Shown one piece after another: positions 46,785 through 62,850 of a DNA stretch of 64,000 nt; within the stretch, counting starts at the first letter, position 1, and the number at the start of each line of letters is the position of its first letter. This DNA is from Candidatus Daviesbacteria bacterium (GTDB lineage Bacteria > Patescibacteriota > Microgenomatia > Daviesbacterales > UBA10151), in contig JAQTPP010000002.1 of NCBI GenBank assembly GCA_028712705.1, positions 43,180 to 107,179 of the forward strand. The letters are read 5' to 3'. The position numbers and the translations under genes are program-made. Under the pieces are notes generated by a model. That model was not told where the DNA came from, did no database searches, and saw only the letters and a list, made by a program, of their open reading frames with translations.

Positions 46785-48435
46785 TAAATCGATAGATTTT
46801 GCTTGGTTGAATTGATATAATTTTATAGTTTGCTGCCAAGTCTGACTTGGTTGGTATATTTGACGCGCCGCGTTCGTCTAGTGGCCTAGGACGTTGGGTT
46901 TTCATCCCAGAAATCACGGGTTCGACTCCCGTACGCGGTACCAAATCCCGAGTTAGCGGGGCGGCGCAGAGCGCCGCCCATGGGTTTAGAGCTCCACAGC
47001 AAACTATTTTGTCGGTGAGCTTGAGGTTCGAGCCGAAGATTTTTTGTGCAAGTACCTTTTTTGCTTCCATGTCTTCCCCCCTTGCGGTATTAGCTGCGTT
47101 AGCAGCTTCCACTATCCAGTTTTTGAAAGGTTCGAGCCAAACATTTTGCGTTTGTTGAAAGCGGAGGATTTGTTCTTCTAACGTCTTCTTTTTAGATAAC
47201 AGTTCAGCTTTTTTGTTAAGGTAAGAATCTCTCTCAATATCCTGGTCAAGGTATGAATCAAGAAGACGTTGAAGTTTATCATTTAAACTTCTAATCTCCG
47301 CTTGTTTCTCCTCAACAAACGCATGGCAGGATTGGGCTACATTTTTTTCTTCTACAGATAATCTATCCAGCATTTTATCTGCCCAATCCTGACGCAAAGA
47401 AACTGATGCAATATTATCTGAAAGCTGTCGATCAAGTTCCTCCTGCCTAATAAAAGGTTGATTACATTTAACAGTTTTGGACTTTTTCGTACATCTGTAA
47501 TACAAATAGGTGGCATGATGATTTGTTTCCTTATAAAATTTTTCCTTAAATTCAGCCGTAATCATCATGCCGCACTGCCCGCAGCGAAAAAGTCCCAGGT
47601 ATGGTTTTAAAACAAGAGGTTTTTTCCAAGACCTGCTTCGTTTCCTCCATACCTCTTGTACGCTATCCCACAGTTTCTTTGAAATGATCGGCGTATGTTT
47701 TCCTTCGTGGATCTCGCCCCAATATTTAAAATGGCCATAGTAGAAAGGGTTAGTTAAGATCTGTTTAGTTACTCTATCAGCTTTCCATTCCTGTCCTTTT
47801 CTGGTCACTATGCCATTTTTAGCCAAAAAGTCCCGGATATCCATTATCCGGTAGTTACCGGTAGCAAACAGTTCAAAAGCCTTTTTAACAATAGTAGCCC
47901 GCTTTTTATCCAAAACTATAGTTTTGATAAGGAGGTCGTTAAGGTAGCCAACAGGAGGGATACCAGGATATATACCATTTCTGACTTTTTGGCGTAAACC
48001 TCTTTTGGTGTTTTCTGAAAGCGAGTCCACGAAGTATTTGCTTTGCCCAAATGCGATGGTGAGCATAAATTTTCCCTGGGGTGTAGCATCAAACCAGAAT
48101 TGAGGAAACTTAAGATACTTAATTTTACCGGTATCAATAAGATAAATAATTTTGCCGCCATCCACACTATTTCTCGCAAGTCTGTCAGGATGCCAAGCTA
48201 AAATTCCATCTGCTTCCCCGGCTTCAATCCTTTCGATCATACTGTTAAAAATAGGCCTGCCAGGGATTTTAGCTGTCTGCTTTTCAACAAGCTCTTCTAA
48301 GATAATAATACCTTCACGCTTGGCATACTCCCTTAGCTCTGTAATTTGAGCAACAATTGATAAAGCCTGCTTATCTTCTACGTCTGTAGACTTGCGGGCA
48401 TATAAGAACATTTTATTCGTATTTGTAATACTCAT
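46750..48435 (-). CDS. Large serine recombinase (resolvase/invertase catalytic domain, recombinase domain, zinc ribbon, coiled coil)
   Basis: N-terminus 'LYARKSTDVEDKQALSIVAQ' with catalytic Ser, 'DRLARN', a Cys-rich zinc ribbon ('CGQCG...C..C') and a C-terminal coiled coil. The ORF's 3' end reads antisense through IR-L and tRNA-Glu, so the real C-terminus is uncertain. Confidence 0.8.
   Translation of the reverse strand: MSITNTNKMFLYARKSTDVEDKQALSIVAQITELREYAKREGIIILEELVEKQTAKIPGRPIFNSMIERIEAGEADGILAWHPDRLARNSVDGGKIIYLIDTGKIKYLKFPQFWFDATPQGKFMLTIAFGQSKYFVDSLSENTKRGLRQKVRNGIYPGIPPVGYLNDLLIKTIVLDKKRATIVKKAFELFATGNYRIMDIRDFLAKNGIVTRKGQEWKADRVTKQILTNPFYYGHFKYWGEIHEGKHTPIISKKLWDSVQEVWRKRSRSWKKPLVLKPYLGLFRCGQCGMMITAEFKEKFYKETNHHATYLYYRCTKKSKTVKCNQPFIRQEELDRQLSDNIASVSLRQDWADKMLDRLSVEEKNVAQSCHAFVEEKQAEIRSLNDKLQRLLDSYLDQDIERDSYLNKKAELLSKKKTLEEQILRFQQTQNVWLEPFKNWIVEAANAANTARGEDMEAKKVLAQKIFGSNLKLTDKIVCCGALNPWAALCAAPLTRDLVPRTGVEPVISGMKTQRPRPLDERGASNIPTKSDLAANYKIISIQPSKIYRFIKSLEFCGILQ
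46867..46943 (+). tRNA. tRNA-Glu (anticodon TTC), CCA encoded
   Basis: Acceptor GCCGCGT/ACGCGGT, anticodon loop TTTTCAT, T-loop TTCGACT. Its last 20 nt are repeated at 63223-63242. Confidence 0.8.
46939..47019. repeat. 81-bp perfect inverted repeat, left copy (partner 48840-48920)
   Basis: Exact reverse complement verified by hand. Overlaps the last 5 nt (TACCA) of tRNA-Glu. Contains the GC hairpin GGCGGCGC-AGA-GCGCCGCC. Confidence 0.85.
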
Positions 48436-48486
48436 AAAATAACCTTGAACCCTGTCGGGTATAAAAAGAATTTTTGCGATAAATTA

Positions 48487-48640
48487 TTGGCAGTTTGTTC
48501 CATATCTTTTGTGAAAGCGGATTGACTCCGCTTTCACTTAAATGGCCACCTTGGTGATCTCAACCGGTGAAGGTTGTCCAAGATGGCCATTAAAAAACTC
48601 CACCGAATGTTGAGATCGCAAACATATTACAAACTGCCAA
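48487..48640. promoter_or_regulatory. Complex palindromic site upstream of the recombinase gene (candidate recombination site / regulatory region)
   Basis: 12-bp IR TTGGCAGTTTGT/ACAAACTGCCAA. It encloses a 10-bp-stem hairpin (48511-48537) and a ~50-bp imperfect palindrome AATGGCCACCTTGG...CCAAGATGGCCATT centred on AACCGGT (48541-48591). Confidence 0.4.
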
Positions 48641-48839
48641 AAGAAAATACAATATAGCAAAAATTCAATTGCGCATTTAGGCAAAGTTTCCCCACCTTAA
48701 GTGGGGAATTATTGATTTATATTTATATAAAAATAAGCAAAGCTTTTCTTTTTGCTTTGCAAAAAATAAAAAATCGCAAGGGGAATTAAAATTTCAAAAA
48801 AAGGTACTGCAATTAAAAGAATCTTGGGCTTTCTGTTTC

Positions 48840-48920
48840 CTCACCGACAAAATAGTTTGCTGTGGAGCTCTAAACCCATGGGCGGCGCTCTGCGCCGCCC
48901 CGCTAACTCGGGATTTGGTA
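48840..48920. repeat. 81-bp perfect inverted repeat, right copy
   Basis: Reverse complement of 46939-47019. Abuts and overlaps by 3 nt the 184-bp IR copy A. Confidence 0.85.
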
Positions 48921-49101
48921 GCGATCTATGATATCGCTCGGACTTATTTTATCAGGAATTATTAATCGGCGCATCGTATCGTTACGCTTCGGCCGGCTAA
49001 TCGCCGGCCTTGCTAATCACCGACGTATCGGTTCGCTCCGCTCAGGCCGCCTTCGGCGGCCTTCGCTTACCCCGATTCAATCGGGGCTTAAAACTAATCT
49101 T
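48918..49101. repeat. 184-bp perfect inverted repeat, copy A (partner 62667-62850); GC-rich with at least 4 internal hairpins
   Basis: Exact reverse-complement match verified by hand. Internal hairpins include GGCCGGC-TAATC-GCCGGCC, GGCCGCC-TTC-GGCGGCC, CCCGA-TTCAA-TCGGG and GCGAT-CTATGAT-ATCGC. Confidence 0.85.
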
Positions 49102-49215
49102 ATCTTTGGAAATTTTCGCATTTTCTATCCTATCTTTCTGTCTGTTTTATTTTGAGTAGCTTTTGTCTAAAGAGCACTTTTGTTACTCAAACAAAATGTC
49201 TGTTATACTTTATTT

Positions 49216-49980
49216 ATGTCTCAAAATTTTTATGATAAGGTAGCTAAAAAATTTGGTGGTTATGGATATGGTAATGGAAGGAAACCTCAGTATAAAAGCG
49301 AATACCCAGCGGGCGATCCTGAAAGGATTTTTAAAGAAAAGCTATTGGAGTTAAGTTCAAAAGATAAAACGGCACTGGATAGTGGGTGCGCTGACGGCAA
49401 ATTTACTCTTTCTATTGCTCCCTATTTCAAAAAAGTGTACGGGATTGATATTTCAAAGGAAAATTTGAATGTTGCAAATAACCACAGAGCTGATGAGAGA
49501 AGTAAAAATGTTGAATATTCTTTTCAAAACGCAAAACATACCTCATTTGAGGATTCTTTTTTTGATATAGCATATTGCAGGAGAGGACCTACTTTTTACA
49601 AGGAGTATCACAGAATTCTTAAAACCGGTGGATATTATCTTGAAATTGGAATAGGAGAGATGGATACAATAGAGCTAAAAAAGATATTTGGCAGAGGGCA
49701 AGGGTATGGAGAATGGGATAAGTCAAAATTGGATGAAAACTTAAAAGAAATAAAGAATCTTGGTTTTAAGGTTATTTTTGCAGAGAATTTTTATCCCTTT
49801 GAATACTATCCTTCTTCCGCGGAGTTTGATTTATTTCTACATCAGGTACCAATTTTTGAAGATTATGATTCGGAAAAAGACGAGGTATCACTGCAAAAGT
49901 ATGTTAAGAAATTTTCAGCCGATAAAGGTATTATGCTTTCGCGTCACCGGTTGGTAATGGTTGTACAAAAAGTCAGTTAG
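49216..49980 (+). CDS. Class I SAM-dependent methyltransferase (Methyltransf_11/25-like)
   Basis: Motif I 'LDSGCADGKFT'. No DPPY/NPPF motif, so probably not a DNA N6/N4 methyltransferase. Start taken at the internal Met of the 49180 ORF. Confidence 0.65.
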   Translation: MSQNFYDKVAKKFGGYGYGNGRKPQYKSEYPAGDPERIFKEKLLELSSKDKTALDSGCADGKFTLSIAPYFKKVYGIDISKENLNVANNHRADERSKNVEYSFQNAKHTSFEDSFFDIAYCRRGPTFYKEYHRILKTGGYYLEIGIGEMDTIELKKIFGRGQGYGEWDKSKLDENLKEIKNLGFKVIFAENFYPFEYYPSSAEFDLFLHQVPIFEDYDSEKDEVSLQKYVKKFSADKGIMLSRHRLVMVVQKVS

Positions 49981-49994
49981 ACGATTTTCTCGTT

Positions 49995-50750
49995 TTATTT
50001 TTCGTAAATTCTGATTGCTTGCCGATATTTACAAAAGTCACAGTCGCTACCACTATTGGGTAGTTTTTCAGATTTTAAACATTCTATAGCATCGAAAATA
50101 GTTCCTTCAACCCAGCTATCGTCTCCTTCGTATGGAAGAATTTTAATATCAAATTCCAGTTTGGCATCAAAAGCTGCTTTGTCTGTATTGCCATTGCAGT
50201 AAACAAAGTATCCGGTATTTGAAACTTTGAAACAGTTTTTCCTAAAAAGCCACTGGTATATTTCCATCTGCCTTTTATAGCCAATTTGCCACTCGGCATT
50301 GAGGGTAACTTCTTCATCTTTGGCAGTAGCCTTGTAGTCAACTATGATTAGTTCTTTTTTGGGATTAACCCAAAGATCATCAATTCCCCCTGTTACCAAG
50401 ACATTACTGTGATCTATTTTTAAAGTTATTCCACCCCGTAGAGAATCTCTCCACTCATCCAACTTTTCGTGAGCCATAGGGACTGCATCAACTTTGTAAT
50501 GTTTCATCAAAGGATGGGGAGTACCATTTGCACGATGAATATCAAACTCTTTTTTTAACAATTTATCTACAGCAGAATTAAGGGAGAAGGGATACCCAGG
50601 CGGTTGAGCAACTCCTAATTTTCTATCAAGGTAAAAACATCTTGGGCAATTTAAATATAAATCAATTTTTGACCTGCTCAAACGAAATAATTCTTTAGAA
50701 TTCTTATCATATAAATTTCTTTTCCTACTTGGATTGTAATATTTAGACAT
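49995..50750 (-). CDS. Cas4-like/RecB-family PD-(D/E)xK nuclease with 4-Cys cluster
   Basis: N-terminal 'CPRC'; 'GGIDDLWV' (D), 'IIVDYKATAK' (D-x-K), 'QMEIYQ' (QxxxY); C-terminal 'C-x11-C-x2-C'. Start at the Met 4 nt after the upstream gene's stop. Confidence 0.65.
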   Translation of the reverse strand: MSKYYNPSRKRNLYDKNSKELFRLSRSKIDLYLNCPRCFYLDRKLGVAQPPGYPFSLNSAVDKLLKKEFDIHRANGTPHPLMKHYKVDAVPMAHEKLDEWRDSLRGGITLKIDHSNVLVTGGIDDLWVNPKKELIIVDYKATAKDEEVTLNAEWQIGYKRQMEIYQWLFRKNCFKVSNTGYFVYCNGNTDKAAFDAKLEFDIKILPYEGDDSWVEGTIFDAIECLKSEKLPNSGSDCDFCKYRQAIRIYEK

Positions 50751-53583
50751 CTTTGAAGTTGTACTTTTGCTCTCTTTTTTGGAAAGCCTCTCTCCCTCCC
50801 TCAAGAATTTCGCAAACGTGCTGGCGGACACCTTTTCTATAAAGTATAGATTTTTCTTTTGATTCCGATAGTTCAAAAGCATTTTCTAGTGATCCAGATA
50901 CATATTCAAATGTATATTTTCTATTATCTCTACCTTTTTCTTGACCTTCCTGGTTTGCTACTATTATTTCTTCGGCATCAGCTCCAACAACTAGATTAGG
51001 GTTATGTGTTACAAAAATAATCTGTCTTCGCTTTTTCTTTTTCTTGATAAAAGATACCAAATCATCGTATACGGATCGATTATCCAAGTCATCTTCAGGT
51101 TGGTCTAAAAGTATAGGCCATTCTTCATTGCTTAGGTCAATTAAAATTCTTAATAACACAAGACCTTTTTTACCAGGAGACATTTTATCCAATGAATCAT
51201 TTTTATATGAAATTTTGAAATCAAGGTAAAAATAGTCATCCAAAATTTTTGTTACTGCTTCTTTGGTAGATTTATTCTTAACAGTTTTTATTTTTCCATC
51301 TATTACGCTTGTGAAAATAGCAGTTATAAAATCTATATGTTCGTTCGGATTGTATTGATATTCATACTCATCTTTCCACTCAGTACCGTCTATCAATCTT
51401 TTAATATCTACTTTATTTATACAACCATTTATTACTTCATCATTAAATCTTTGCTCATTGAATCCTACTAAAACGTTTAAAGAGATTCCGTCAAATCTCT
51501 TTTCATACTTTTTAAATTCGTCCTTTATTGAATTATAACTACCGAATATTTTTTTATAAACATCAATTAAGAATTCTTTCTCATTTTTATGGCTATTTTT
51601 CTTTGATTCTAGATTCTTTTTTTCAATAGCTATCCTATCTAGTTTACCCTGCTCAATCTTAATTTCTTCATTTTTCTTTTTGAGTTCATCTTGGAGTTTA
51701 ACCTTTGCCATTAGAGGTGTTAGATCTTTTCGGATCTCTTCCAAAAGCTTTTGCTTTTCAGAAACTCTAGTATCTATTAATCTAATTATTTTACCTACAG
51801 ATAATAATAAATTATTACGTACAGTTTCTATCTGATGAAATTCTTTTGTAAATTCATTTTTAATCTCCTCATCTTCTAGATATACTAATTGTTCGTTCTT
51901 TAAATTCTCAAAACTTTTTAATTGTTGATAAATATTTTGACTAAATAAATTTATATGCTTTTTATCTTCCGATAAAAGTGTAACCTTTCTTGTTGCTTCT
52001 TGCTCTTTGTTTAATAATTGTTCGTAATCTTTAATTTGTACAGTAGTTAAGCCAGACTTGATCTTGATTTCGTTAGCTTCTTTCTGCAGTTGCTCTAGAT
52101 ATTTCCTAATACCACTCTCCTCTCCAAGTTGCTTTAAAGTTTGTTCAATTTCTAAAATATCATCCCTGAACTGATATAGATTGTTTATGCTAATAGGAAT
52201 ATTTTTTGAAAGGCTTTTAATTTGCATAAGATCACTTTCGTGTTTTTCTTTCACCTCTTTATCTTGAAGTAGTACATCCATTACGAATCTATTTAAAGTT
52301 TCTCTACTTTTTATATTCCTTTCAGAAAGTTTATTTAAATAATTTTGTGGAATATATAAAATCTTTCTTTCATTTTCTTTAACTTGTGCACCTGTATTTT
52401 TGAGAAAAGTACTTGCTCCATCTGTCCAAACGACTTCGAAATTAAAGTTTGGATTTTCGTCGAATGTATAAGGTAAAACTAATTGTCCATCTGTAAATCT
52501 ACCACCAGCTTCAAGTGGATCAATGGTTTTAGCAATATAATAAAGTAATAAAGATTTACCTGTAGATTTACCGCCAATGATAGCTGTTAAGTTATTGTTA
52601 ATTTCTATTGGGTCTGATTGAAAATTTTCATTTCCGGTACTATCAATAAATCGTATTTTATCTATGAGAAAATATGTTTTTTTTGATTCTGGGCGTTCGT
52701 AACCAAAAGCTACTCTATCCCAAGGCTCAAATAAAATTTGTTTTAATCCTTCAAAAGTTTTATCTGCTTTTATCCAAGTTATATCTTTTTCCGTATTGCC
52801 TTGAGTATTAGTGAACTGTTTCCCTAAAAAATTATCAAGATCGGAGAATGAATGACAGTCTGATGTAGTGACAACAGCTTTAGGCTTTGACTGTATACTT
52901 TTATTTTCATAGCGATCAGTTTGTAAGTAATAATCTTTATTGTTAGCATTTCCGAAGAAAAAATCACAAAAGCTGTCAAATGAGTCAGCTAACTCCTTTT
53001 TAACATTAGAGCTAGGAACAGCCCTTAAGCTCCCCATACCTGAAGCCACCCCTACAATGAGATAAGGACAGTCATTTCCAAAACTATCCTCTAAAGTTTT
53101 TTTTAAATCTTCAATCGAAATACTTACCCGATCATATCCGCCACACCCTGTAATATCTGCATCAACACAATAACATTTTGATTCATCAGGTTGTTTGTTT
53201 TGAAGGGGTAATCTAGAAAGAAAGCTTTTTATTCTTGCAATCTCGCATTGAGGATCAAAAATCAGATGGCATTGTAATTGTTCTGTAGCTTGATTAAGAC
53301 TAATATCTAGTCTCAATTCAATATTTGGAAAGAAAACTTTCCCCTCAAAATCTGAATTACCTTGTATCTTTGAGATAAGTTTTTCATACCCATCTATGGA
53401 AAAGTAATCAGTGATACCAAATACTTCTACATCAGAATTCTTAATTCTTTCCAGAAAAAGATTCCAAACGTCATCAATAATACCGCCTCTTATTTTATAT
53501 TGGTCTTCTCTTTTAGTCTCAGGAGTATGAATCTGTAAATCCCACTTCCTCCATACAGAACCCTTTGGGTATAAATTGTTCAT
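50743..53583 (-). CDS. PHP-domain-fused SMC/Rad50-like ABC ATPase (Ppl/TrlF-like architecture)
   Basis: N-terminus 'KWDLQIHTPETK' His-rich PHP-like. Walker A 'GGKSTGKS'. About 350 aa of coiled-coil-rich insert. C-terminal 'ILLDQPEDDLD' Walker B/D-loop and 'FVTHNPN' typical of OLD/SMC-like ABC ATPases. Confidence 0.7.
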   Translation of the reverse strand: MNNLYPKGSVWRKWDLQIHTPETKREDQYKIRGGIIDDVWNLFLERIKNSDVEVFGITDYFSIDGYEKLISKIQGNSDFEGKVFFPNIELRLDISLNQATEQLQCHLIFDPQCEIARIKSFLSRLPLQNKQPDESKCYCVDADITGCGGYDRVSISIEDLKKTLEDSFGNDCPYLIVGVASGMGSLRAVPSSNVKKELADSFDSFCDFFFGNANNKDYYLQTDRYENKSIQSKPKAVVTTSDCHSFSDLDNFLGKQFTNTQGNTEKDITWIKADKTFEGLKQILFEPWDRVAFGYERPESKKTYFLIDKIRFIDSTGNENFQSDPIEINNNLTAIIGGKSTGKSLLLYYIAKTIDPLEAGGRFTDGQLVLPYTFDENPNFNFEVVWTDGASTFLKNTGAQVKENERKILYIPQNYLNKLSERNIKSRETLNRFVMDVLLQDKEVKEKHESDLMQIKSLSKNIPISINNLYQFRDDILEIEQTLKQLGEESGIRKYLEQLQKEANEIKIKSGLTTVQIKDYEQLLNKEQEATRKVTLLSEDKKHINLFSQNIYQQLKSFENLKNEQLVYLEDEEIKNEFTKEFHQIETVRNNLLLSVGKIIRLIDTRVSEKQKLLEEIRKDLTPLMAKVKLQDELKKKNEEIKIEQGKLDRIAIEKKNLESKKNSHKNEKEFLIDVYKKIFGSYNSIKDEFKKYEKRFDGISLNVLVGFNEQRFNDEVINGCINKVDIKRLIDGTEWKDEYEYQYNPNEHIDFITAIFTSVIDGKIKTVKNKSTKEAVTKILDDYFYLDFKISYKNDSLDKMSPGKKGLVLLRILIDLSNEEWPILLDQPEDDLDNRSVYDDLVSFIKKKKKRRQIIFVTHNPNLVVGADAEEIIVANQEGQEKGRDNRKYTFEYVSGSLENAFELSESKEKSILYRKGVRQHVCEILEGGREAFQKREQKYNFKDV

Positions 53584-53584
53584 A

Positions 53585-53668
53585 TTATTCTTTATTATTT
53601 TCTACAATCGCAATTTCTTCCTGCGTTAGGCCGTAGAGTTTATAGACAAAATCGTTAAATTCAAACAT
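53585..53668 (-). pseudogene. 27-codon ORF (MFEFNDFVYKLYGLTQEEIAIVENNKE) resembling a DNA methyltransferase C-terminal tail; possible gene remnant or coupled micro-ORF
   Basis: 'LYGLTxEEI' is a recurring C-terminal tail of N6-adenine methyltransferases/type IIG enzymes (recollection). Its stop sits 1 nt before the ATPase start codon. Confidence 0.25.
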
Positions 53669-53831: not shown

Positions 53832-56800
53832 TTATGAATGATACTGTCTCGTTCCTCTACAGTAAGGGAAACGGGAACAACCATAAAATCTACCATACCT
53901 TCCGGTTCTCAATATCATACCCGAACCGCATTTTGGACAATTTTTATCGTTAGAAATTAGAGCATCATTAACATCTTCGGCAGGCTTTTCAACTAATGTA
54001 TAACCCTTACAATGCATACAAAATCGTCCATATCCGGTTGTCAAATCAGGATCCCTAAAGTCTTTATATTCTCTAACTTCCTTACATTTTGGACACTCCT
54101 TCATTGAACCATTTTGTAAATTTTCTACCGTTTCGTGTATATGGCTTATGACATTATTTTTTCCCACCCCATTTTTAACTAAACTAATTATTCTTTCGTT
54201 AAGAGTTGCAATAGGATTGTTGCCAATGTTGAATTTATTAATTCTTAAAAATCTGTAACCGTAACTCTCTAATACTTTTTCTCTATAAATATCTGATTCG
54301 GAATAATAATCTTGGTAGTTGTATTCATTTATTTCATCGGTATCCTTAAAGTGCTCTTTAAAACCGTCATATTCCATGACGATTTTGTGTTCTTTATGTG
54401 TTTCGTCCTTATATACAAGTAAGAAATCAACCTTATATTTTGGATGATTGTAGGTTCTATCGAGTTGTTTCAAATACTTTCCAAGCTCAAACTGTGGAAT
54501 AAACTCAATGCTATCCTTGTGTTTTGTCCAAAACTCCGTTTGATAAAACCAATTCATGACTTCAGGCTCCATCTTAGACTTCTTATCAGCTTCGGTAACA
54601 CTGTGCTCCTTCTTAGATTCGTTAAGAACAAAATAATAGTGTCTTAAGGCTTCACCTATTGAACCGGTATAATTTTCAATAGGTTTACTTAACACAAAAT
54701 GCATACATTCTTTGGCACGGCTTAAACCAACGTTCAATCTTTGAGCTTTTATTCTTCCTTCTTCTTCAACATCAACATCATTTAAATCTTTAATAAACAC
54801 ACCCCAAAGATGATCATCTTCTTCCATCGCAACCATGGAATAAAATACGAGATCTCTTTCTTCGCCTTGGCAGGTGTCAAAAGTCATTATTTTTAATTTA
54901 AAGGTATCGTAAAAGTAATCTTTTTCCGGTAATTGACTAATTTTTTCAACGAGTAATTTCTGTTGATTGGTGTGGGGCGTTATAATACCAACGCTTTGAT
55001 TAGACCCAGACTCTTTGAGTTTTTTCAACTCCGAAATAATATATTTGACTTCCAATTCATTAGAATTTTGCAACAATTCCGTTTTCCCATCATGTTTGAT
55101 AAACGAAAATTTCAGTACTTCATCAATCGACTTCCCTCGAATTTTCATTACCTGTAGGCTGTCCTGATAAAAGTATTTATTTGAATAGGAAATAATCTCT
55201 TTGTAACCTCTAAAATATTTTAAAAGTTGTATATCGTAGTTACTAATAAAATCAAAAAACTCAAGAATTGAGGTTTTAATATTAAACTTTTTGAGTTTCT
55301 CTAATTTCACACCTTCATTTGAAATATTTTTAACAAAGCTGTCTTCAAGTTGACTTAAATATTTCCTATTTTCTTCTGTGCGAGCTTGCGCAGTCTTAAC
55401 GTTACTAAATTGTTTTCTATCTCCCAAAACTAACACCTTTTTAGCTCTCAGAAGTGCAGGAAAGGCCTGAGCTATGCTTACCTGTGAAGCCTCATCTATA
55501 ATTACTAAATCAAATATTTCAGGTTCAAGAGGAATATACTCAGCATAATCTCTAATTCCAGCCAAAATGCAGGGAAAAGCCTCTTTAAGCTTTAGAAATT
55601 CATTTTGTGGAAACTTCATTTTGCTTTGAATTATTTTTTTCAAAGCGGTTGCGGTAGCTTTGTAATTAGTCCAAAAATCAATCAGCCTATTGTCCATGAC
55701 ATGAGTCATTTGTACAGTAAGCAAGCTTTCAATGTCTTTCTTTTGACTATCGTAGTTGAGATCAGGAATGTCTTGAAAATCCTTTTCAATCTTTTGGTTC
55801 AAACTCAAATATCTGATTAATTTATCGAAATCCAAATCAGATATTTTTGTGAAACTATTATCAGTAAGAGTTTTAAATGACGAAAGATTAACTTTTAGTT
55901 TTTTAGCCGTAAGTGGATACTTATCTATATTTGAGCCAAGATATTTTATATCATCATTTAAAGCTATTAAGTCATTTAAAGATGATAGAGTGCTTTCATT
56001 TTTTATGGCTTGATGAAAAAAGTGTAAGTAGTCGAGTTTACTAATAAATTTGTCATCAAGCTTGCCAAATATTTCATCCGCATAATTATAGATGTTCGTT
56101 GCTTCGTCAAGTTTCTTTAGGTTTTGTTGTGGTTCGATTGAAGATGAATATTTAAAATTTTTTCTAAATTCAGTATTTAGCCGCCCTATCTGATCTTTTT
56201 TGAATAGATAGCCGAATAGCCAATTTTTCTCCTCTTTATATTTTTGTATGGACGAGTTTAGGATTTTTAACCTAGAAGAATCGAAGCTTTCGAACTCTAG
56301 AATTGAATTTACTTTATCTCCATATACTTCACGCAGTTTAGCGACAGATGAAGAAAGAGAGCTTAAAAACTGTAAATATTTTTGAAAATCAGATGTATCT
56401 TTGAAGTCATCAAGAGAAAAATCCAATAACTCAAATATTTTTAGTGCCTTTTCATTTTCATCAGTATTAATTACTAAATTAGCTTTAAGTGTTAAAAATA
56501 TCTTCCGGAATTCTTCAAGATCTATCGCAGACTCCTGCTGTTTAACCACTTCTTCTAAATCAATGGGGAAACCATTGTTTGTATGGTAGCTTTCAAGATC
56601 AAAGTATTCGTGAATCTCTTTTATATCGATATCCTTATAAGTCAATATTTCTGCTTCTATGTCCTCCTTTAATGACTTCTGAGATTTATCAATATTCTGT
56701 TCTAGATCCTTATAGTTTTTCTTTACTGCAAGAAAATTATTTGTAATAGCTTTAATTGATATTGGACTTAGTATCTTTGCATAAGCATTACCTATTTTCC

Positions 56801-58430
56801 CCAATCTTAAAACAGGATTTTGAAAATTATCGTCTGTCCTAACTTTGTTCATCGTTTCCGTTATCTTATCCTCTACAACATCAAGAGCCTCTTTCTTATC
56901 AGACAGAACTAAAACAGATTGGTTTTTAAGTATTGCGTTGAAAACAACTGCGGTTATTGTATGGCTTTTACCTGTTCCAGGAGGACCTTGCACAATAATA
57001 TATTTACAATCATCTTGCTTTATAGCTGATAGTATTTGTAGTTGTTCTTCGTTTAATGGAATCGGGCTTTGAAATACAAGTTTATCCTGTACTTCTTGAT
57101 CATTCCAATCTTCTTGAATTTCTATATTGAAACTTTTTGGGTCTTTCTGAATAAAGTCATCAATTAACTTGTTAAAAGCACCAGCTAAAATATTATCCTC
57201 GGAAGAAAGAAGCTTTAAAATTTCTTCGTAATCGTTTACCAACGCTTCATCAGATTTATCGAATAAGGTTATATAGCATGAATTAGACACCCTAACAAGA
57301 AAACTCTTCGCAACCTGCGGGTCCGTTTTATCTATATCAATATTGTTGTCTAATTCAAAAAAGTTAGTGATCTCATTCAGGATTTCGCTTGTTAATTCCC
57401 TGAAATCATCTTGATGTTGTGCTAGATAGATAATTCTTTCAGCAATGGTTTTTAGATTTCCCTTTTTATCTTTTTCTTGATTATATTGCTGTGAAATGTA
57501 TTCAAGTGCTTTCTTGTTTATGTAGACTTGAGAATCAAATTCTATATTCAATAGATCATTTTGTTTTTCTACAGTAAACGGAATATAGAAAATTGGATAC
57601 TTTGCCTTTTCAAAAGTGATATCGCAAAAATATAGATAAAATTCCTGTTTGTCTAAAATGGTACGGTTCCGCTCCATCTCATATACTTCTGCAAATAAAT
57701 CTCCGACACGGAAACTTTCAAAAAACGACAAAATATTAGTTTTGGCATTATCAATGTCAAAAACATCCTTTAATTGCTTAGGAATGTCTACCTTTTCCTT
57801 TGCCAACAGGAGCTTAATAACTTCTGAAATTTTATTTTCAAGCAAGGAGGTGAGAACAGAGGTAAGTTCCTCTTCCATTAAATAGATACTGTCCTCATCT
57901 CCTAAATTTAAGTTCTCGAGTGGTTTTTCTAAATAATTAATAAATGGTAGTACTAATTTTGATTGAATGACTTTTGAAGTTGCTTCGAGGGCTGTACTTA
58001 ACGCTTGGTCATATTCTTTTTTATACAGAGTAGACGATTTCTCAATCTCTCCACCAATTTGTTCAAGCATCTGAGAAATTTGCTTATTCGTTATTTTTGT
58101 AAGAGATAGCTCGATAAGATCAAGAAGATTTTGGGGTATATTTGTACGGTAGACACCTTTTTGGATCGCATTTAAAGCACTTTTGTCAAAAGAATGATTA
58201 ATTGCTTTCCAAACAAGATTAGAAAAAGCCGGATATTTATTAAGGTTTAAACCAATTAGTAGATTATTACCACTTCGTAATTGAACACTCCGTTTTGGGT
58301 TTCTTCTTTTATGGAAATCTGTTTCCAGAAAATCCATAAAGTATTTAGCAACTTCGCGAATAAAAGTAAGGCTCTTGGAGAGACTAAAAACTTTTTCGTC
58401 TTTATCAGTCTCATTATCAATTAATGCCAT
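53832..58430 (-). CDS. Giant SF1 (Upf1/DNA2-like) helicase fused to a DUF559/Vsr-like PD-(D/E)xK endonuclease and two topoisomerase-type zinc ribbons (Hhe-like architecture)
   Basis: Walker A 'GPPGTGKSHT'; motif II 'IIDEASQ'; 'VLVLGDRKQ'; C-terminal 'FLLVYKDETHKEHKIVMEYDG...REKVLESYGYRFLRI' REase-like; 'CPKCGSGMILRTGRYGRFYGCSRFPYCRGT' zf-C4_Topoisom. N-terminal ~470 aa are DUF4011-like. Confidence 0.8.
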   Translation of the reverse strand: MALIDNETDKDEKVFSLSKSLTFIREVAKYFMDFLETDFHKRRNPKRSVQLRSGNNLLIGLNLNKYPAFSNLVWKAINHSFDKSALNAIQKGVYRTNIPQNLLDLIELSLTKITNKQISQMLEQIGGEIEKSSTLYKKEYDQALSTALEATSKVIQSKLVLPFINYLEKPLENLNLGDEDSIYLMEEELTSVLTSLLENKISEVIKLLLAKEKVDIPKQLKDVFDIDNAKTNILSFFESFRVGDLFAEVYEMERNRTILDKQEFYLYFCDITFEKAKYPIFYIPFTVEKQNDLLNIEFDSQVYINKKALEYISQQYNQEKDKKGNLKTIAERIIYLAQHQDDFRELTSEILNEITNFFELDNNIDIDKTDPQVAKSFLVRVSNSCYITLFDKSDEALVNDYEEILKLLSSEDNILAGAFNKLIDDFIQKDPKSFNIEIQEDWNDQEVQDKLVFQSPIPLNEEQLQILSAIKQDDCKYIIVQGPPGTGKSHTITAVVFNAILKNQSVLVLSDKKEALDVVEDKITETMNKVRTDDNFQNPVLRLGKIGNAYAKILSPISIKAITNNFLAVKKNYKDLEQNIDKSQKSLKEDIEAEILTYKDIDIKEIHEYFDLESYHTNNGFPIDLEEVVKQQESAIDLEEFRKIFLTLKANLVINTDENEKALKIFELLDFSLDDFKDTSDFQKYLQFLSSLSSSVAKLREVYGDKVNSILEFESFDSSRLKILNSSIQKYKEEKNWLFGYLFKKDQIGRLNTEFRKNFKYSSSIEPQQNLKKLDEATNIYNYADEIFGKLDDKFISKLDYLHFFHQAIKNESTLSSLNDLIALNDDIKYLGSNIDKYPLTAKKLKVNLSSFKTLTDNSFTKISDLDFDKLIRYLSLNQKIEKDFQDIPDLNYDSQKKDIESLLTVQMTHVMDNRLIDFWTNYKATATALKKIIQSKMKFPQNEFLKLKEAFPCILAGIRDYAEYIPLEPEIFDLVIIDEASQVSIAQAFPALLRAKKVLVLGDRKQFSNVKTAQARTEENRKYLSQLEDSFVKNISNEGVKLEKLKKFNIKTSILEFFDFISNYDIQLLKYFRGYKEIISYSNKYFYQDSLQVMKIRGKSIDEVLKFSFIKHDGKTELLQNSNELEVKYIISELKKLKESGSNQSVGIITPHTNQQKLLVEKISQLPEKDYFYDTFKLKIMTFDTCQGEERDLVFYSMVAMEEDDHLWGVFIKDLNDVDVEEEGRIKAQRLNVGLSRAKECMHFVLSKPIENYTGSIGEALRHYYFVLNESKKEHSVTEADKKSKMEPEVMNWFYQTEFWTKHKDSIEFIPQFELGKYLKQLDRTYNHPKYKVDFLLVYKDETHKEHKIVMEYDGFKEHFKDTDEINEYNYQDYYSESDIYREKVLESYGYRFLRINKFNIGNNPIATLNERIISLVKNGVGKNNVISHIHETVENLQNGSMKECPKCKEVREYKDFRDPDLTTGYGRFCMHCKGYTLVEKPAEDVNDALISNDKNCPKCGSGMILRTGRYGRFYGCSRFPYCRGTRQYHS

Positions 58431-58491
58431 AGTTTAGATCAATTCTAGCAAAATTCTTTGATTTAAGATAGGAAGAAATTAAACTTGAGAT

Positions 58492-59004
58492 TTACAGACC
58501 CCAGATGCCTCTTTTATTTTTCTTGGCCTCATCTTGAGCTTTAAGTAATAACTCCCGGTAAATAAATGGTTTCTTTTTTTGGTAAACTACAACTTGTGCC
58601 ATGCCAAGTCTGGCAAGTTTCATAGAGACATTTTTGCCATCAACAATTACATAGGCAAGTATCCTGCCAAATTTGTCTCCTTTGTAATTGTCATATTCCA
58701 GTTTTATTTCTTTCCCTTCAACCAATTTTCTGTTTGCTTCAGTGGCCTCTTTTTCAAAAGGCTCATTAGTTTCAGGGGAAGTTATACCAACATACCTGAC
58801 AATTGCCCCGCTGTGCAAAACAATGGTATCTCCGTCAACAATCCGTTCAACTTTTGCTTCCTTTGGAAAATAACTGATATTCTGGGTCTGGTATTTACCT
58901 GTATTTTCAATTAGGTCTTTAATCTTTTTCTCATAAGGAGTATTTTTAAGATGAGGCAATATATCTTCCAGTAAATTTTCTGAAACGGTAATTAGTTTAG
59001 CCAT
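58492..59004 (-). CDS. Staphylococcal nuclease (SNase/thermonuclease)-like protein
   Basis: 'RIVDGDTIVL...VRYVGITSPE' and 'GKEIKLEYD...DKFGRILAYV' SNase OB-fold catalytic motifs. The ORF-track N-terminal extension overlapping the upstream gene was rejected. Confidence 0.65.
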   Translation of the reverse strand: MAKLITVSENLLEDILPHLKNTPYEKKIKDLIENTGKYQTQNISYFPKEAKVERIVDGDTIVLHSGAIVRYVGITSPETNEPFEKEATEANRKLVEGKEIKLEYDNYKGDKFGRILAYVIVDGKNVSMKLARLGMAQVVVYQKKKPFIYRELLLKAQDEAKKNKRGIWGL

Positions 59005-59044
59005 ATTTATGGATCCCGTATCAAGTACGGGATGACAAGGTAGA

Positions 59045-60265
59045 TTAGTTATGCTCAATAAAAGCTTTGTAGCCAACAAGCTTTTTGTTATCCCCTGAAC
59101 TGGAATAGATATTTTTAACTCCAAAGGTGAGATATAACTCATCTTTGGCATAAGTGATGGTAGTGCCATTGGGGTCTGATGAATTGAAGGTTTGCTTGAA
59201 ACCGGAATTTGTAAGCTCTCTGGTATAGTAATCAATAAAGTCTTGAGGAATAGTTTCCAGTTGTGATGATTCAAGGTAGACACCTTCCTGCTCAATTCTT
59301 CTTTTACCTGAAGTAAAAAGTAAGGTTTTGCTTTGGGTTAGTTCCCAAGTAAGGCCGGAGAATAAAGCAGGCAAGATAGAAGGATTAGAGGGGGTAGAAG
59401 GAGAAGAGGGATTAGGGGCAACAGGTAGCGTGGGAGTGGGGGTTGGTTTAGTTTCAAAAGAAACAACTTCGGAGACTTCTATTAAATTAGGGGTTGGGGT
59501 CATGTTGCCTTTAACTTCTACCTTCATGTTTTCAAAATTAGCTAAATTAACATTTTGTGATTTAGGTATTAGAGTCCACATGGTTTTATTTTTATCATTT
59601 GCCTGCAGGTAATATCCTTTGGTAGACTTTTGTATTGTCCCCTGGGCAGTAATTGACCGGTGCAGGATTGGAGAAAAATTGGGGAATAGTTTACCTACAG
59701 CATAGTTCAGGCCTGATTTAAATCCTACTCCAAAACCTCCAATTCCCACCATTATTACAATCAATGCCAGGACAGGAATGCGCAGAGTAATCATTTGTCT
59801 TTTGAGCAGTTTAGCTAAAAATTTCTTGAGATATGTTACAGGATTGGTCAGAAAGAAGCCAAAAAGAGGAGGGTCTTCTTTTTCAGAGGGTTTGGTATTT
59901 TGGTTAATTTCTATGATAGGAGGCAGAATTGAGGAAGGATTAGAGGGAACAGAAGGATTATCCGCCTTCGCCGAGGCTTCGGTGGACGAGGTAGGATGTT
60001 CAGATGTAATGAAGTGACCATGTTCGTCTCTTGGTTTGTTTTGGGCTGCTTCAGAATAATGTTCGTGTTTTAAAGCATCTGGTCCTTCGGCTTCACTCAG
60101 GATCTTCGAGGTATTCGGAGTGTTCAGGGGAGGAGTTTGTGGCGTAGGCGGGATAGGATTAGGTTGGGGTTGTGTCTGGTAAGGACTGTTTGGGTCTACA
60201 GGATTAGTATGGGGGTTAAAGTTAGAGCCAAAAGGTTGAGGCGGATCTTTGGGCAGATTATCCAT
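59045..60265 (-). CDS. Proline-rich membrane protein (low-complexity P/T/N-rich segments, one TM), unknown function
   Basis: Composition and one hydrophobic helix 'ITLRIPVLALIVIMVGIGGFGVGF'. Confidence 0.45.
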   Translation of the reverse strand: MDNLPKDPPQPFGSNFNPHTNPVDPNSPYQTQPQPNPIPPTPQTPPLNTPNTSKILSEAEGPDALKHEHYSEAAQNKPRDEHGHFITSEHPTSSTEASAKADNPSVPSNPSSILPPIIEINQNTKPSEKEDPPLFGFFLTNPVTYLKKFLAKLLKRQMITLRIPVLALIVIMVGIGGFGVGFKSGLNYAVGKLFPNFSPILHRSITAQGTIQKSTKGYYLQANDKNKTMWTLIPKSQNVNLANFENMKVEVKGNMTPTPNLIEVSEVVSFETKPTPTPTLPVAPNPSSPSTPSNPSILPALFSGLTWELTQSKTLLFTSGKRRIEQEGVYLESSQLETIPQDFIDYYTRELTNSGFKQTFNSSDPNGTTITYAKDELYLTFGVKNIYSSSGDNKKLVGYKAFIEHN

Positions 60266-60311
60266 ATCTTCAGTATACCCTCAAGATAATTTCAGGTGCA
60301 AGCTAAAGATT

Positions 60312-60884
60312 CTATTTAACTGCAATAGATATTAATTTTTCGTGATACTCCGGCTTTTTTGAAGAATCAACTCCATATAAAACTACTTCAATAATATCAA
60401 ATACCCAATTGACTTTTTTTAGCCTGGTACTTAATTCCAAGAGAGAGGCTTTAAATGCTTCTTGAGCTTTTGGATCTCCTACCCAAGCCACAGTAACATG
60501 AGGATGAAATGGTAAGTTATTATCAGCAGCGCAGTAAATAGATAGACTTTTTGAAATTAACTTATTAAATTCCTGTAATTGCGGCGGATATTGAACATCT
60601 GAAAATAGTATTCTTGGCTTATCTTCTCCAAAATACCCAAAACCGCTAACCTTTAATTTAGTTCCTTTCAGTATTTCTAAATACTTTTTGACATCTTCTG
60701 CTATTCTTGACAAAGCGGATTGAGATTGTTTATCTAAATAACAAACGGTGATATGAGGAGTTTTAGGGTGGGTTGTTTTAAATAAAGGACTGATTTGAGA
60801 AATATCGGTCTGTAAGTCTTCAAAATCTTGTTGATACTTCTGAGGCAGGGGGATTCCAATAAAATATGAACTATAATCTTTCAT
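60312..60884 (-). CDS. 2H phosphoesterase, LigT/ThpR-like (2'-5' RNA ligase family)
   Basis: Two HxT/S motifs: 'HITVCYL' and 'HPHVTVAW'. Confidence 0.75.
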   Translation of the reverse strand: MKDYSSYFIGIPLPQKYQQDFEDLQTDISQISPLFKTTHPKTPHITVCYLDKQSQSALSRIAEDVKKYLEILKGTKLKVSGFGYFGEDKPRILFSDVQYPPQLQEFNKLISKSLSIYCAADNNLPFHPHVTVAWVGDPKAQEAFKASLLELSTRLKKVNWVFDIIEVVLYGVDSSKKPEYHEKLISIAVK

Positions 60885-60941
60885 GAAAGCAGTATATCAA
60901 ATTTTGACTTTTTGAGCTTATAGGTTTACAATCCGATTGTT

Positions 60942-61886
60942 ATGTCAGCTGAAGCACCGAAAAATACTGGTATAACTGCTCCTAATACACAGCAAGAACC
61001 ACAAGGCTGTCTTCCCGGATTTCTAAGAAGATTATTTGCAACTCCACAAGAAGTACAACAAATACCAAAAATTATACAGCCACCATCAGGCTTAGAAGGC
61101 TTTGCTGATCAGCTACAGCAAGGAATAGATGGATATTTTGCATCAGTAAGGCAGCAAGATTTAGAGAGAAGAAATGCTGAAGCTGCAAGGATGGCAAATA
61201 AGGCATTAGAAAAGATAAAGACTGAACAACTACAAAGAGACCGGCTGGAGCAAGAACAATCAAGAATTAGGGCAGCAGTCACAGAGGCATCTAAGACCTT
61301 ACAGGATTTCCAGATAGCCGAAAGATTGAGATATATACAAGATAAAATATGGGGAGGAAAAGGGAATATAGCAGCTGCAGAACCTGCATTTAATATTGAT
61401 GGAAGGTATAACCGCCTAGGCGGACTTAGGTTAGAATATGAATGCCCATATTACTACAGAACGGTAACAGAAGAATGGTCAGATGCAAAAAATTATGCTT
61501 CCCGAAAATATGAACGAAGGTGGAAGTATGCTTCAGCTACATTTGGAACATGTCTGAGTGTAGATGTATTAGCCTGTCGACAGGACTCCCAAGTGGAGGC
61601 AAGAAAGCTCCTTGAAGTATCAGCAATATATGATTATACATTTAGAGTAGGTGTAGGTCGTTTCCCTTTTGGGGGTGACACATTCTTAGGGAAAGTTACT
61701 ATCCCGATAGACCAACCAGATAGCAAAACCCTTTTAGGCGGGGCTTTAACTCAAGAAACAGTTCATAGAGTTGCTATTGGATGGATACCGTCGAAACTAG
61801 ATGAACAAGCACTGGAAGAACGGTCACGTCTCCCTCATTGGGAAAAATGGATTTATGTACCCCCAGTGTATTCAGGTGGTGACTAA
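60942..61886 (+). CDS. Hypothetical protein (Gln/Glu-rich coiled-coil N-terminal half)
   Basis: 314-aa ORF with composition distinct from its neighbours; no motif recognised. Confidence 0.35.
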   Translation: MSAEAPKNTGITAPNTQQEPQGCLPGFLRRLFATPQEVQQIPKIIQPPSGLEGFADQLQQGIDGYFASVRQQDLERRNAEAARMANKALEKIKTEQLQRDRLEQEQSRIRAAVTEASKTLQDFQIAERLRYIQDKIWGGKGNIAAAEPAFNIDGRYNRLGGLRLEYECPYYYRTVTEEWSDAKNYASRKYERRWKYASATFGTCLSVDVLACRQDSQVEARKLLEVSAIYDYTFRVGVGRFPFGGDTFLGKVTIPIDQPDSKTLLGGALTQETVHRVAIGWIPSKLDEQALEERSRLPHWEKWIYVPPVYSGGD

Positions 61887-62666
61887 TATTTATTATTTTA
61901 ATTTGCGGCTTCCGCCGCCCCCGCAAAGTTAAGGTATAAAGACCCAAAAAGAGGGCAGCACCATTAGAAGGAATGTTAGGAATGTAGATAAAAATATAAT
62001 TGGGTGCTGCCCGATATACGCGAACCCGCCAAATTTTACTTCGGGATTTTAAAAGGGCGGGTGAGCCATCGGAATCAGTTGTGAGTGTCCCGTCTCGAGA
62101 CGGGACCGAACGGCATGGAAACAGAACAGGGTAAAAATTGCGGCGGGGGCGAAAGCGGAATACCCCCGCAACGGCAGGCGGTACTTCATAACCAATTTAA
62201 GGTAGTCAAGGAGCAGACCCTAAAGGGTCTCCGATCTATAACAGAATAAATAAAGGAATCAATATAAAATAAAATTTCGCGGCTCCGCAGACGGGTTAGA
62301 TACTGTATGAGCAAAATTGAAACGTACCATATAGGCGAGTCGCCCCCTAGGGCGACCTCTCGCCCAAAAGCGGGGGTGCCGCCACAACTATTTGGGTGGG
62401 TGGGTTGCTAGGAGTATGTACCAGCTCCACAACTTACCACAACACCACAATTTGTGGGCTGCTGAAGCAGGTAACCACAATTGTGGTCCACAATAAATTA
62501 TTGTGGTGATTAGATTGTTACAACAGGCTAATTGTGGTACTTATAAAAATAATGCAACTTTGTAAATGGTTGTGGGAGTGGGACTAGTTGCCCGCGGATG
62601 GGTGGGGTGGGCAAGGGCAACATTTTCTGTTTCCCCCTTTCCCCTCCTGCGAAAATTTCCAAAAAA
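61887..62666. other. GC-rich ORF-free structured region: stacked hairpins, CCACAA/TTGTGG palindromic iterons, G-tract (G4-like) motifs; candidate ncRNA and/or origin/partition/operator array
   Basis: No ORF of 60 aa or longer in any frame across ~640 bp. Perfect 20-bp palindrome GTCCCGTCTCGAGACGGGAC (62088-62107). GCGGGGG-[GC-GAAA-GC...]-CCCCCGC. Three CCACAA-N(0-5)-TTGTGG palindromes at 62475-62510 plus half-sites. GGGTGGGTGGG (62396-62406) and GGGTGGGGTGGGCAAGGGCAA (62600-62620). Confidence 0.5.
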
Positions 62667-62850
62667 AAGATTAGTTTTAAGCCCCGATTGAATCGGGGTA
62701 AGCGAAGGCCGCCGAAGGCGGCCTGAGCGGAGCGAACCGATACGTCGGTGATTAGCAAGGCCGGCGATTAGCCGGCCGAAGCGTAACGATACGATGCGCC
62801 GATTAATAATTCCTGATAAAATAAGTCCGAGCGATATCATAGATCGCTAC
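62667..62850. repeat. 184-bp perfect inverted repeat, copy B
   Basis: Exact reverse complement of 48918-49101. Confidence 0.85.

Follow-up and report, generated by a model that had tools for sequence, protein, structure and literature searches.

A stretch of 64,000 nt from a Candidatus Daviesbacteria bacterium (GenBank assembly GCA_028712705.1, contig JAQTPP010000002.1, positions 43,180 to 107,179 of the forward strand; referred to here as the window, with position 1 as its first letter) contains a predicted large serine recombinase (LSR) gene, int, next to a tRNA-Glu gene and two nested pairs of perfect inverted repeats. Our analysis makes it highly probable that the region 46942–62850 is a mobile element that has integrated into this tRNA-Glu gene and that carries two inverted copies of its attachment site, attP, as modules that include the 3' end of int. 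One copy would have been split by integration, while the spare copy, termed X, would have stayed whole. A split copy and a whole spare together account for the 81-nt inverted repeat around int, the 184-nt inverted repeat around the cargo and the 3-nt overlap where the two meet. The nested layout recurs across dozens of genomes of ultra-small Patescibacteria, which indicates that it is neither an accident of one genome nor an assembly artefact, and it marks what is apparently a so far undescribed family of gene-carrying elements.

Direct string comparison confirmed that 46939–47019 is the exact reverse complement of 48840–48920 (81 nt) and 48918–49101 that of 62667–62850 (184 nt), the coordinates given in an earlier note on this DNA. 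A repeat search lengthens the first pair to 84 nt, with one mismatch at 46938, and the second to 203 nt, with mismatches at 49102 and 49104. We refer to the arms as a (46939–47019), a' (48840–48920), b (48918–49120) and b' (62648–62850). The repeats are perfect and too long to have arisen by chance in 64 kb. As had been observed, the pairs are contiguous and overlap at 48918–48920; the common trinucleotide is GTA there and reads TAC at 46939–46941 and at 62848–62850. The reverse complement of the contiguous a'b block reads b' followed directly by a, with the 3-nt overlap mid-way, and joining the island ends 62850 and 46939 would thus re-form a second, inverted copy of the a'b block, X. The earlier note took the pairs to be independent of each other; as part of the structural explanation as a whole, we judge instead with good confidence that a single duplicated attP module, split into halves, gave rise to both pairs. 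The G+C content is 0.52 in the 184-nt arm and 0.58 in the 81-nt arm, compared to 0.37 window-wide, and the 184-nt arm folds into four to five short GC-rich hairpins (z = -3.8 versus shuffles), in keeping with its description as a GC-rich unit of at least four hairpins. The left 81-nt arm covers TACCA, the last five nucleotides of tRNA-Glu(ttc) at 46867–46943, so the overlap with the tRNA end and the tie of the repeats to the recombinase and the tRNA are both borne out by the anatomy. The further statement that the 81-nt pair brackets the recombinase gene only holds in that int is bracketed and fails in that the left arm lies within the open reading frame (ORF) 48435..46750. That the pairs form one split module, and that the 3' end of the recombinase gene lies inside this module, are points that the earlier note did not contain.

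In its integrated state int encodes 561 amino acids on the minus strand (46750..48435). Int matches the Pfam domains Resolvase (PF00239, E = 4.9e-20), Recombinase (PF07508, 1.6e-16) and Zn_ribbon_recom (PF13408, 7.8e-9), and the catalytic residues Arg14 and Ser16 in the motif YARKSTD are invariant across 26 Int homologues. By its domains and catalytic serine, features of sequence, Int is an LSR; the SPbeta and TP901-1 integrases are distant, weak matches. The searches returned 7826 Int homologues at E < 1e-20, the named ones from Curtissbacteria, Daviesbacteria, Gottesmanbacteria and other Patescibacteria, and tblastn detected only one recombinase gene of this type in the window. Some homologues (P0004, P0029, P0044, P0065) have about 900 residues, nearly twice the usual length, and could be fusions or read-through products.

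The int ORF crosses arm a and then continues antisense through the tRNA-Glu gene. The residues encoded by 46942–48435 belong to the element, while the last 63 or so (46750–46938) are derived from the antisense strand of tRNA-Glu and from host DNA. Different C-termini also follow the conserved ...PWAALRAAPPTRxx segment in the homologues, and they are of two kinds, either peptides encoded by antisense tRNA genes, such as VPPTGVEPVISGMKTQRPRPLDDGG, or a conserved native tail, xIYxxARTYFxxN(Y). The a'b block, read on the plus strand in the int frame, encodes LTDKIVCCGALNPWAALCAAPLTRDLV followed by AIYDIARTYFIRNY, a stop codon at 48963–48965 and then hairpins; this translation, LTDKIV...RDLV-AIYDIARTYFIRNY-stop, matches the native tails of the relatives. 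The two kinds of C-terminus and the translation of a'b place the crossover site inside the 3' end of the recombinase gene. Thus, the window holds the integrated state, in which the native Int tail AIYDIARTYFIRNY has been exchanged for tRNA-derived antisense codons. The tail codons are open in the spare copy and in the far arm in every locus examined, and a manual count of tail differences between copies gave 10 synonymous and 5 non-synonymous changes (in one locus, L014, all 4 of 4 are synonymous).

The integration target is the tRNA-Glu(UUC) gene at 46867..46943 on the plus strand, identified by ARAGORN, by Rfam (tRNA, 59 bits) and by junction comparison. The B half-site consists of its T-arm and acceptor stem, and the crossover core of tRNA positions 72–74 (TAC, 46939–46941). 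Arm a, assigned from its reverse-complement match to 48840–48920 and from translation, is the P' half of the split attP and together with the tRNA makes up attL; it lies inside the int coding sequence, where it contains the codons for LTDKIVCCGALNPWAALCAAPLTRDLV and a hairpin, GGGCGGCGC-AGA-GCGCCGCCC. Arm b', the reverse complement of 48918–49120 (exact over 184 nt), is the P half and with the host flank makes up attR; its core is TAC at 62848–62850 and the tail codons are still open there. Repeat contiguity, the tail match and folding delimit the intact spare module X to 48840..49120 on the plus strand, inverted relative to int. X consists of a' (48840–48920) with the last 27 int codons before the core, the 3-nt core GTA (48918–48920), the native last 14 codons encoding AIYDIARTYFIRNY (48921–48962), the stop codon (48963–48965) and a hairpin-rich trailer up to 49120. 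Insertion is site-specific at tRNA positions 72–74, with target duplication limited to the core. As in elements that integrate into tRNA genes, tRNA-Glu is intact, attL and attR have a common core and cargo differs between related hosts.

The geometry of the two site types supports their assignment. The P arm of X contains a T-loop-like motif, TCGGAC, that lies 4 nt further from the core than the T-loop of the tRNA. Across loci, the real T-loop (CGAAC and variants) lies at +17 from the discriminator base, while CGAAC, AGAAC or CGGAC is found at +21 in the P arm of X; of 42 loci, 38 have an outward shift of 4 nt and the other 4 one of 5 nt. In serine integrases the same zinc-ribbon-domain motif is present in attP and attB and displaced by 5 bp (PMC3783163), and the parallel with our 4–5-nt shift indicates that X is an attP-type and the tRNA end an attB-type site. 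The short common core (3–9 nt) and this outward shift agree with LSR attachment sites, where the displacement in attP is about 5 bp. Since the conserved T-arm provides one half-site and the core provides identity, one family can target many tRNAs. The T-loop-like motif also encodes Arg-Thr in the native tail, and loci differ in whether they use CGA or AGA there, which suggests a constraint at the protein level as well. We also considered a palindromic crossover dinucleotide that would permit both insertion polarities, and this is not general, as cores such as CAC, CTC and CAGC occur.

We surveyed three close relatives found by protein look-up and 80 loci from species-representative genomes by scripted scans. 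In these loci, 71 recombinase copies are flanked by inverted repeats made of the gene's 3' end, with a median arm of about 130 nt; the identity between a and a' is 100% in 30 of these copies and at least 97% in 48. The outer arm of 48 copies overlaps a tRNA gene of the opposite strand by 3–8 nt (mode 5) at the 3' end of that gene, and the targets comprise 14 tRNA types (Leu, Glu, Val, Gly, Thr, Phe, Gln, Tyr, Arg, Asn, Met, Cys, Lys and Ile). With orientation compared across assembled loci rather than within populations, int points into the tRNA in all 48 tRNA-linked copies and none is flipped; no surveyed copy has a tRNA at the arm upstream of int. Forty loci extend at least 3 kb upstream of the inner arm, and 28 of them have a contiguous second inverted repeat that flanks the cargo; its arms (132–354 nt, mostly 100% identical) enclose 0.9–13.5 kb of cargo. 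The core common to both pairs is 3–9 nt in most loci (for example CAC, CTC, TAC, CACCA or CAGC) and corresponds to tRNA positions 72–74 or beyond. Many of the surveyed contigs stop exactly at an arm. In the literature that we searched, neither this family nor a nested arrangement of split and spare attP repeats is described, although coverage was incomplete and novelty is therefore unproven.

Several observations accompanied the survey. In four loci (L030, L033, L051, L067) the sequence beyond arm a is neither a recognisable tRNA nor a native tail, and these could be secondary sites or rearrangements. Several genomes contain two family elements a few kb apart at different tRNA genes, with arms that cross-match at about 90%, as in L068 (5643–7531 and 8357–11631), L072 (6302–8208 and 9900–13422) and L052/L084 on the same contig; the tRNAs involved are Thr and Tyr, or Leu-UAA and Leu-GAG. 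Many loci (L007, L008, L017, L019, L031, L040, L045, L064, L068 and others) lie in metagenome-assembled genomes labelled Gammaproteobacteria, Syntrophaceae, Bacteroidetes, Phycisphaerae, Verrucomicrobiota, Acidiferrales or Sphingomonadaceae; mislabelling or mis-binning is a more probable cause of this than a wider range of hosts.

Forms in which both attP copies are intact were also found. In L006, which encodes a recombinase that is 73% identical to Int and has a native tail, X is present on both sides of int. The two copies can be told apart by a single mismatch 12–19 nt from the core, which shows that the native-tail junction is physically real. A second assembly of this element, L089, contains 10.6 kb of cargo within inverted arms of at least 146 nt, and the L006 contig of 13,046 nt has ends compatible with a circle of about 13.1 kb. 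Both copies are likewise intact, and the tail is native, in L090, where the repeats are 98% identical, unique sequence is present on both outer sides and there is no tRNA, and in L092, where they are 86% identical. Thus, a two-copy form with an intact int exists, and it is likely an episome. The possibility that native-tail recombinases on short contigs are path switches in de Bruijn graphs was rejected for L006 and L090, in which mismatches near the core separate the copies; another of these loci, L091, has no repeat at all.

Several points weigh against the element as we describe it. About a dozen family loci lack inverted repeats, and several have non-tRNA sequence beyond arm a. The two-copy forms come from relatives only and may be integrated elsewhere, and their circularity amounts to the compatibility of contig ends. 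For the window's own element, neither a circular junction nor an empty site nor a second orientation was observed. A recombination directionality factor of the kind that LSRs need for excision did not come to light, and no candidate gene for one was recognised in the small elements. Two equivalent attP copies predict that int should sometimes point away from the tRNA, which is never seen, so that an added assumption is needed, be it selection, a lock or a preference in cis. Finally, conservation of the tail at the protein level is not fully separable from conservation of the DNA site.

The earlier note had offered a flip-flop as one explanation of the repeats. On this model, Int would invert the int segment through a and a', the cargo through b and b', or both, as a phase-variation switch similar to Hin, Gin or the shufflons. 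Both segments are indeed bracketed by inverted repeats, and inversion between a and a' would hand int its native tail, since a' leads into the tail codons. The open tail codons of the spare copy, with their mostly synonymous changes, and arms that were kept identical despite an old duplication fit such a switch as well. Both orientations of an invertible segment should coexist, however, and the absence of a flipped int from the tRNA-linked relatives does not agree with this. Moreover, one of the sites in question is of the attL and the other of the attP type, and recombination between these two types is not a normal reaction of serine integrases (PMC3783163). The repeats of 80–350 nt, with the core at their outer edge, are also unlike invertase sites, and the cargo is often a single metabolic gene without orientation-dependent promoter logic. 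The hix and gix sites, by comparison, are about 26 nt long. We therefore regard a flip-flop as unlikely.

In another model, the element would move as one specific DNA strand, on which the two inverted attP modules anneal into a double-stranded attP. Folded sites of this type are known from the attP of CTX phage and the attC sites of integrons, and a single-stranded stage would account for the single orientation and for the conservation of a complete inverted site copy. The hairpin-rich arms and the absence of replication and transfer genes from the small elements also speak for it. However, a serine recombinase breaks all four strands, and by our own derivation a folded stem would yield hairpin-capped chromosome ends that need resolution. 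Given also that no rolling-circle Rep, relaxase or phage genes were found, that double-stranded contigs with both copies intact exist and that direct support is lacking, we consider this model very improbable.

Two further proposals of the earlier note, that the repeats are the terminal inverted repeats of a transposon-like element or linear replicon, or that they result from inversion between two tandem tRNA-Glu insertions, are in conflict with the anatomy and more improbable still. They draw on the long perfect inverted repeats beside a recombinase and on a second copy of the tRNA-Glu 3' end at 63223–63242. Yet the ends of the element, a and b', are unrelated to each other and each corresponds to half of the internal block X, and insertion is specific to tRNA positions 72–74 with no target duplication beyond the 3-nt core, whereas a transposon or linear replicon would show inverted termini and a target duplication. 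There is only one recombinase gene, the same layout is found at 14 kinds of tRNA, and the extra tRNA fragment is parted from attR by an unrelated GIY-YIG cassette. An assembly artefact (a collapsed repeat, a hairpin chimera or a misjoin of integrated and free forms), which the earlier note had named as what would overturn its reading, is scarcely credible, for although the window comes from a metagenome-assembled genome, repeats do disturb assemblers and numerous contigs of relatives stop right at an arm, the nested layout is present in dozens of independent assemblies from different assemblers, samples and host classes, copies with 1–14% mismatches are read through, int has a constant orientation unlike that from random path choice, and 81 nt is shorter than a read.

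The integrated element with two inverted attP modules suggests the following mechanism. In each member of the family, the LSR Int would insert the element at the 3' end of a tRNA gene, and the element would carry two inverted attP modules of about 280 nt, each comprising the last int codons, a core of 3–5 nt matching tRNA positions 72–74 or beyond, the native Int tail with its stop codon and the hairpin-rich trailer. In the free form, int would read into one attP copy, while the other copy would lie inverted upstream of the int promoter. Integration in the window most probably took place through the copy at the int 3' end. One half of this copy became arm a, which is fused to tRNA-Glu in attL, and the other half became arm b' at a distance of 13.9 kb, in attR. 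Excision by recombination of attL with attR would rebuild int across the b'a junction. The conserved tail would matter for Int, and its swap may act as an integration-dependent lock or direction switch on Int, and such a lock or switch could explain why only the tail-disrupting orientation is seen in chromosomes. For the spare copy we can envisage one or more of three roles. Inversion between a and a' could restore a full-length int, which an inverted copy would permit without gene loss; the spare could be the second arm of a repeat similar to that of the 2-micron plasmid (an amphimer) in the episome; or the arms could provide homology for the exchange of cargo. Any one of these roles is doubtful at present.

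The repeats appear to be old and maintained. Just inside a', a pseudo-coding remnant at 48796..48839 on the plus strand, detected by local alignment and tblastn, is what decay has left of an inward extension of the int 3' end duplication. In particular, 48796–48830 resembles the int codons just inside arm a with a local alignment score of 35, compared to 13.8 +/- 2.1 for shuffled sequences, none of which reached this score in 1000 trials. A decayed extension beside a perfect 81 nt indicates that the duplication was once longer, that its inner part has decayed and that the duplication is old. In the relatives, the identities of the two pairs (a/a' and b/b', respectively) are uncoupled, as in L070 (91% and 100%), L075 (92% and 100%), L052 (100% and 91%) and L018 (98% and 81%). 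These values do not fit a single clock running since integration and point to gene conversion or arm replacement after integration. Gene conversion would keep the arms identical. Perfect identity had earlier been attributed either to very recent formation or to active homogenisation; the remnant and the independent divergence of the relatives' pairs fit the latter better.

The 5' leader of int contains a conserved pseudoknotted element of about 85 nt (48536..48619, minus strand), which we identified in an alignment (A2) of 26 loci. It follows directly after an extended -10-like box at 48624–48631, and it corresponds to what the earlier note had described as a palindromic site upstream of the recombinase gene. 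For helix A (8 bp) and the pseudoknot helix C (14 bp), 98.6% of the alignment cells are paired, compared to 82.4% in shuffles and 31–45% in slid controls. Compensatory changes are present in 13 pairs, and conserved U-G wobbles occur on the int-sense strand only. A third, variable helix B was seen by eye and is out of register in the MAFFT alignment, and it was excluded from the pair counts. With its strong covariation, the element is a candidate for a new regulatory RNA or ribozyme and for a new RNA family. Rfam scans of the whole window and of 46700–49400 and 61800–63300 detected tRNAs only, with no family at the arms, the int leader or the TTGTGG region described below.

The cargo (49121..62647, 13.5 kb) was annotated by Pfam and PADLOC scans. 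It encodes an S-adenosylmethionine-dependent (SAM) methyltransferase (49180–49980, plus strand), a PD-(D/E)XK Cas4-like nuclease (49995–50882, minus), a Ppl-like ATPase (50743–53583, minus), a superfamily 1 (SF1) helicase of 1532 residues with a Topo zinc ribbon and Mokosh/Hhe-like matches (53832–58430, minus), an SNase (58492–59295, minus), a 406-residue protein (59045–60265, minus), a LigT protein (60312–60884, minus) and a 314-residue protein (60942–61886, plus). This looks like a defence-type gene set. The module of SNase and 406-residue protein and the non-coding end of the cargo are also present in the L006/L089 element. This conserved non-coding end (61887..62647, 760 nt; homologous to L089 147–824) contains numerous GC-rich hairpins and, in 62382–62575, 11 TTGTGG/CCACAA motifs, with 33 elsewhere in the window; with its iteron-like motifs it could be an origin or a protein-binding array. 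No virion, packaging or lysis genes of the kind that would define a prophage were detected by the Pfam and PADLOC scans of the cargo. Among the 2.9 million viral contigs of IMG/VR, a single distant integrase match (43% identity) was found, and a phage origin was dropped on this ground.

Small relatives carry one or two ordinary genes as cargo, including genes for GMP synthase, alanine racemase, an adenylosuccinate lyase-HAD fusion, prolyl-tRNA synthetase with an amino-acid kinase, GNAT, HD with a methyltransferase, uridine kinase with HIT and an EamA transporter; no replication or transfer genes were found in those examined. In some loci, genes resembling those of core metabolism, namely for prolyl-tRNA synthetase with the amino-acid kinase, GMP synthase, alanine racemase and the adenylosuccinate lyase-HAD fusion, are the sole cargo (L077 7232–9476, L061 7871–9397, L076 8403–9539, L068 3149–5326). 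Int modules that are 91–96% identical are combined with unrelated cargo, and homology stops at the b arms. In L070 and L077 the same host flank follows tRNA-Phe and the cargo differs, which ruled out the possibility that the cargo is inverted host DNA. On these sequence comparisons, the cargo is element-borne and modular.

Beyond attR, the host-side flank (62851..63242, plus strand) contains a small GIY-YIG ORF at 62867–63190, assigned by Pfam, and then a direct repeat of 20 nt from the tRNA-Glu 3' end at 63223–63242. This flank lies outside the element and probably stems from a separate and earlier insertion at the same tRNA. By implication, the attB that the element used had the sequence ...GGTAC/ACTTCGG and did not encode a CCA. 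A database look-up returned no record for the GIY-YIG protein. The adjacent host gene encodes a protein with 100% identity to one from a Candidatus Daviesbacteria metagenome-assembled genome. An empty tRNA-Glu site was not found; the host-flank protein was matched by the source genome alone, on a Logan contig of 1.9 kb that stops after 30 nt of arm a. Elsewhere in the window, the region 14000–20600, directly downstream of tRNA-Val (13761–13833), has a G+C content of 0.28–0.35 and a reversed GC skew. It encodes a type I restriction-modification specificity subunit, an N6-methylase/HsdR_N fusion and a LexA-like repressor and may be another island; neither a recombinase homologue nor a copy of the X module is present there.

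The element resembles several known systems in part and is a member of none of them. With the phage-type LSRs (A118/LI, phiC31, Bxb1, SPbeta SprA and TP901-1) it has in common the Resolvase, Recombinase and Zn-ribbon domains, a short core and a shifted half-site motif. In contrast to these, its attP lies inside int, the tail is rewritten, many tRNA 3' ends are recognised through the T-loop and a second, inverted attP is present; there is also no evident directionality factor, it is hosted by Patescibacteria and its integrase is all but absent from viral contigs. The archaeal integrases of the SSV1 type likewise have attP inside int, and their gene is partitioned upon integration into a tRNA gene and restored on excision. 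An attP within the integrase ORF, a tRNA target and an int that is altered when integrated are thus features of both systems, but the SSV1-type enzymes are tyrosine recombinases whose gene is divided into two large pieces, whereas int loses a tail of 14 residues, and they have neither a spare inverted attP nor nested inverted repeats. In the mycobacteriophages BPs and Brujita, which show integration-dependent immunity, attP lies in a coding sequence and integration alters the C-terminus of the protein and, through it, how active or stable the protein is. We propose the same logic for Int, although in these phages the split gene is that of the repressor, the integrase is a tyrosine integrase and there is no duplicated site.

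The yeast 2-micron plasmid encodes the FLP recombinase and contains its site, FRT, inside a 599-bp inverted repeat. As there, a long near-perfect inverted repeat with the recombinase site would divide the circle into two unique segments, one of which contains the recombinase gene; for L006 the circle, of about 13.1 kb, is a matter of compatible contig ends. FLP is a tyrosine recombinase, however, and the plasmid does not integrate, whereas the small members of our family lack replication genes and inversion is only proposed. The invertases Hin, Gin and Cin, like Int, are serine recombinases encoded in or beside a segment bracketed by inverted repeats. They are small serine recombinases that use sites of about 26 nt and an enhancer, and both orientations coexist; here, only one orientation was observed, and the repeats represent the halves of an attP module. 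The nearest ecological analogue, in a different host phylum, is provided by the Tycheposons of Prochlorococcus, which are cargo-carrying integrative elements that target tRNA genes and bring adaptive and defence genes into streamlined genomes (10.1101/2020.12.28.424599). Of 937 Tycheposons, 910 have tyrosine recombinases and a minority has an LSR (10.1101/2020.12.28.424599). In the text of that study, a search turned up neither nested inverted repeats nor an intragenic attP, the term 'inverted repeat' appearing only in a reference title.

For a serine integrase, it is unusual that attP lies inside int, that integration rewrites the tail of the integrase and that an inverted spare attP is kept. 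This architecture suggests control of recombination direction without a dedicated factor and, together with a natural set of orthogonal integrases, each for a different tRNA end, would be of interest to genome engineers. The repeats also break assemblies of these genomes at predictable places. The Patescibacteria, or candidate phyla radiation (CPR), make up a large share of bacterial diversity and have tiny genomes with patchy metabolism, and little has been described on how they exchange genes. The family reported here has more than 7800 recombinase homologues and occupies many tRNA genes, sometimes with several elements per genome. We tentatively put forward, as a possibility that goes well beyond the structural explanation, that it represents a new class of mobile element, a minimal carrier of cassettes targeted to tRNA genes, in which direction is controlled by the tail swap without a further factor, in which a gene-converted spare attP would re-arm the integrase by inversion, let the episome isomerise and provide arms for the exchange of cargo, in which a leader RNA, as a new regulatory RNA or ribozyme, would gate the system, and which perhaps is a main vehicle of gene flux in Patescibacteria.

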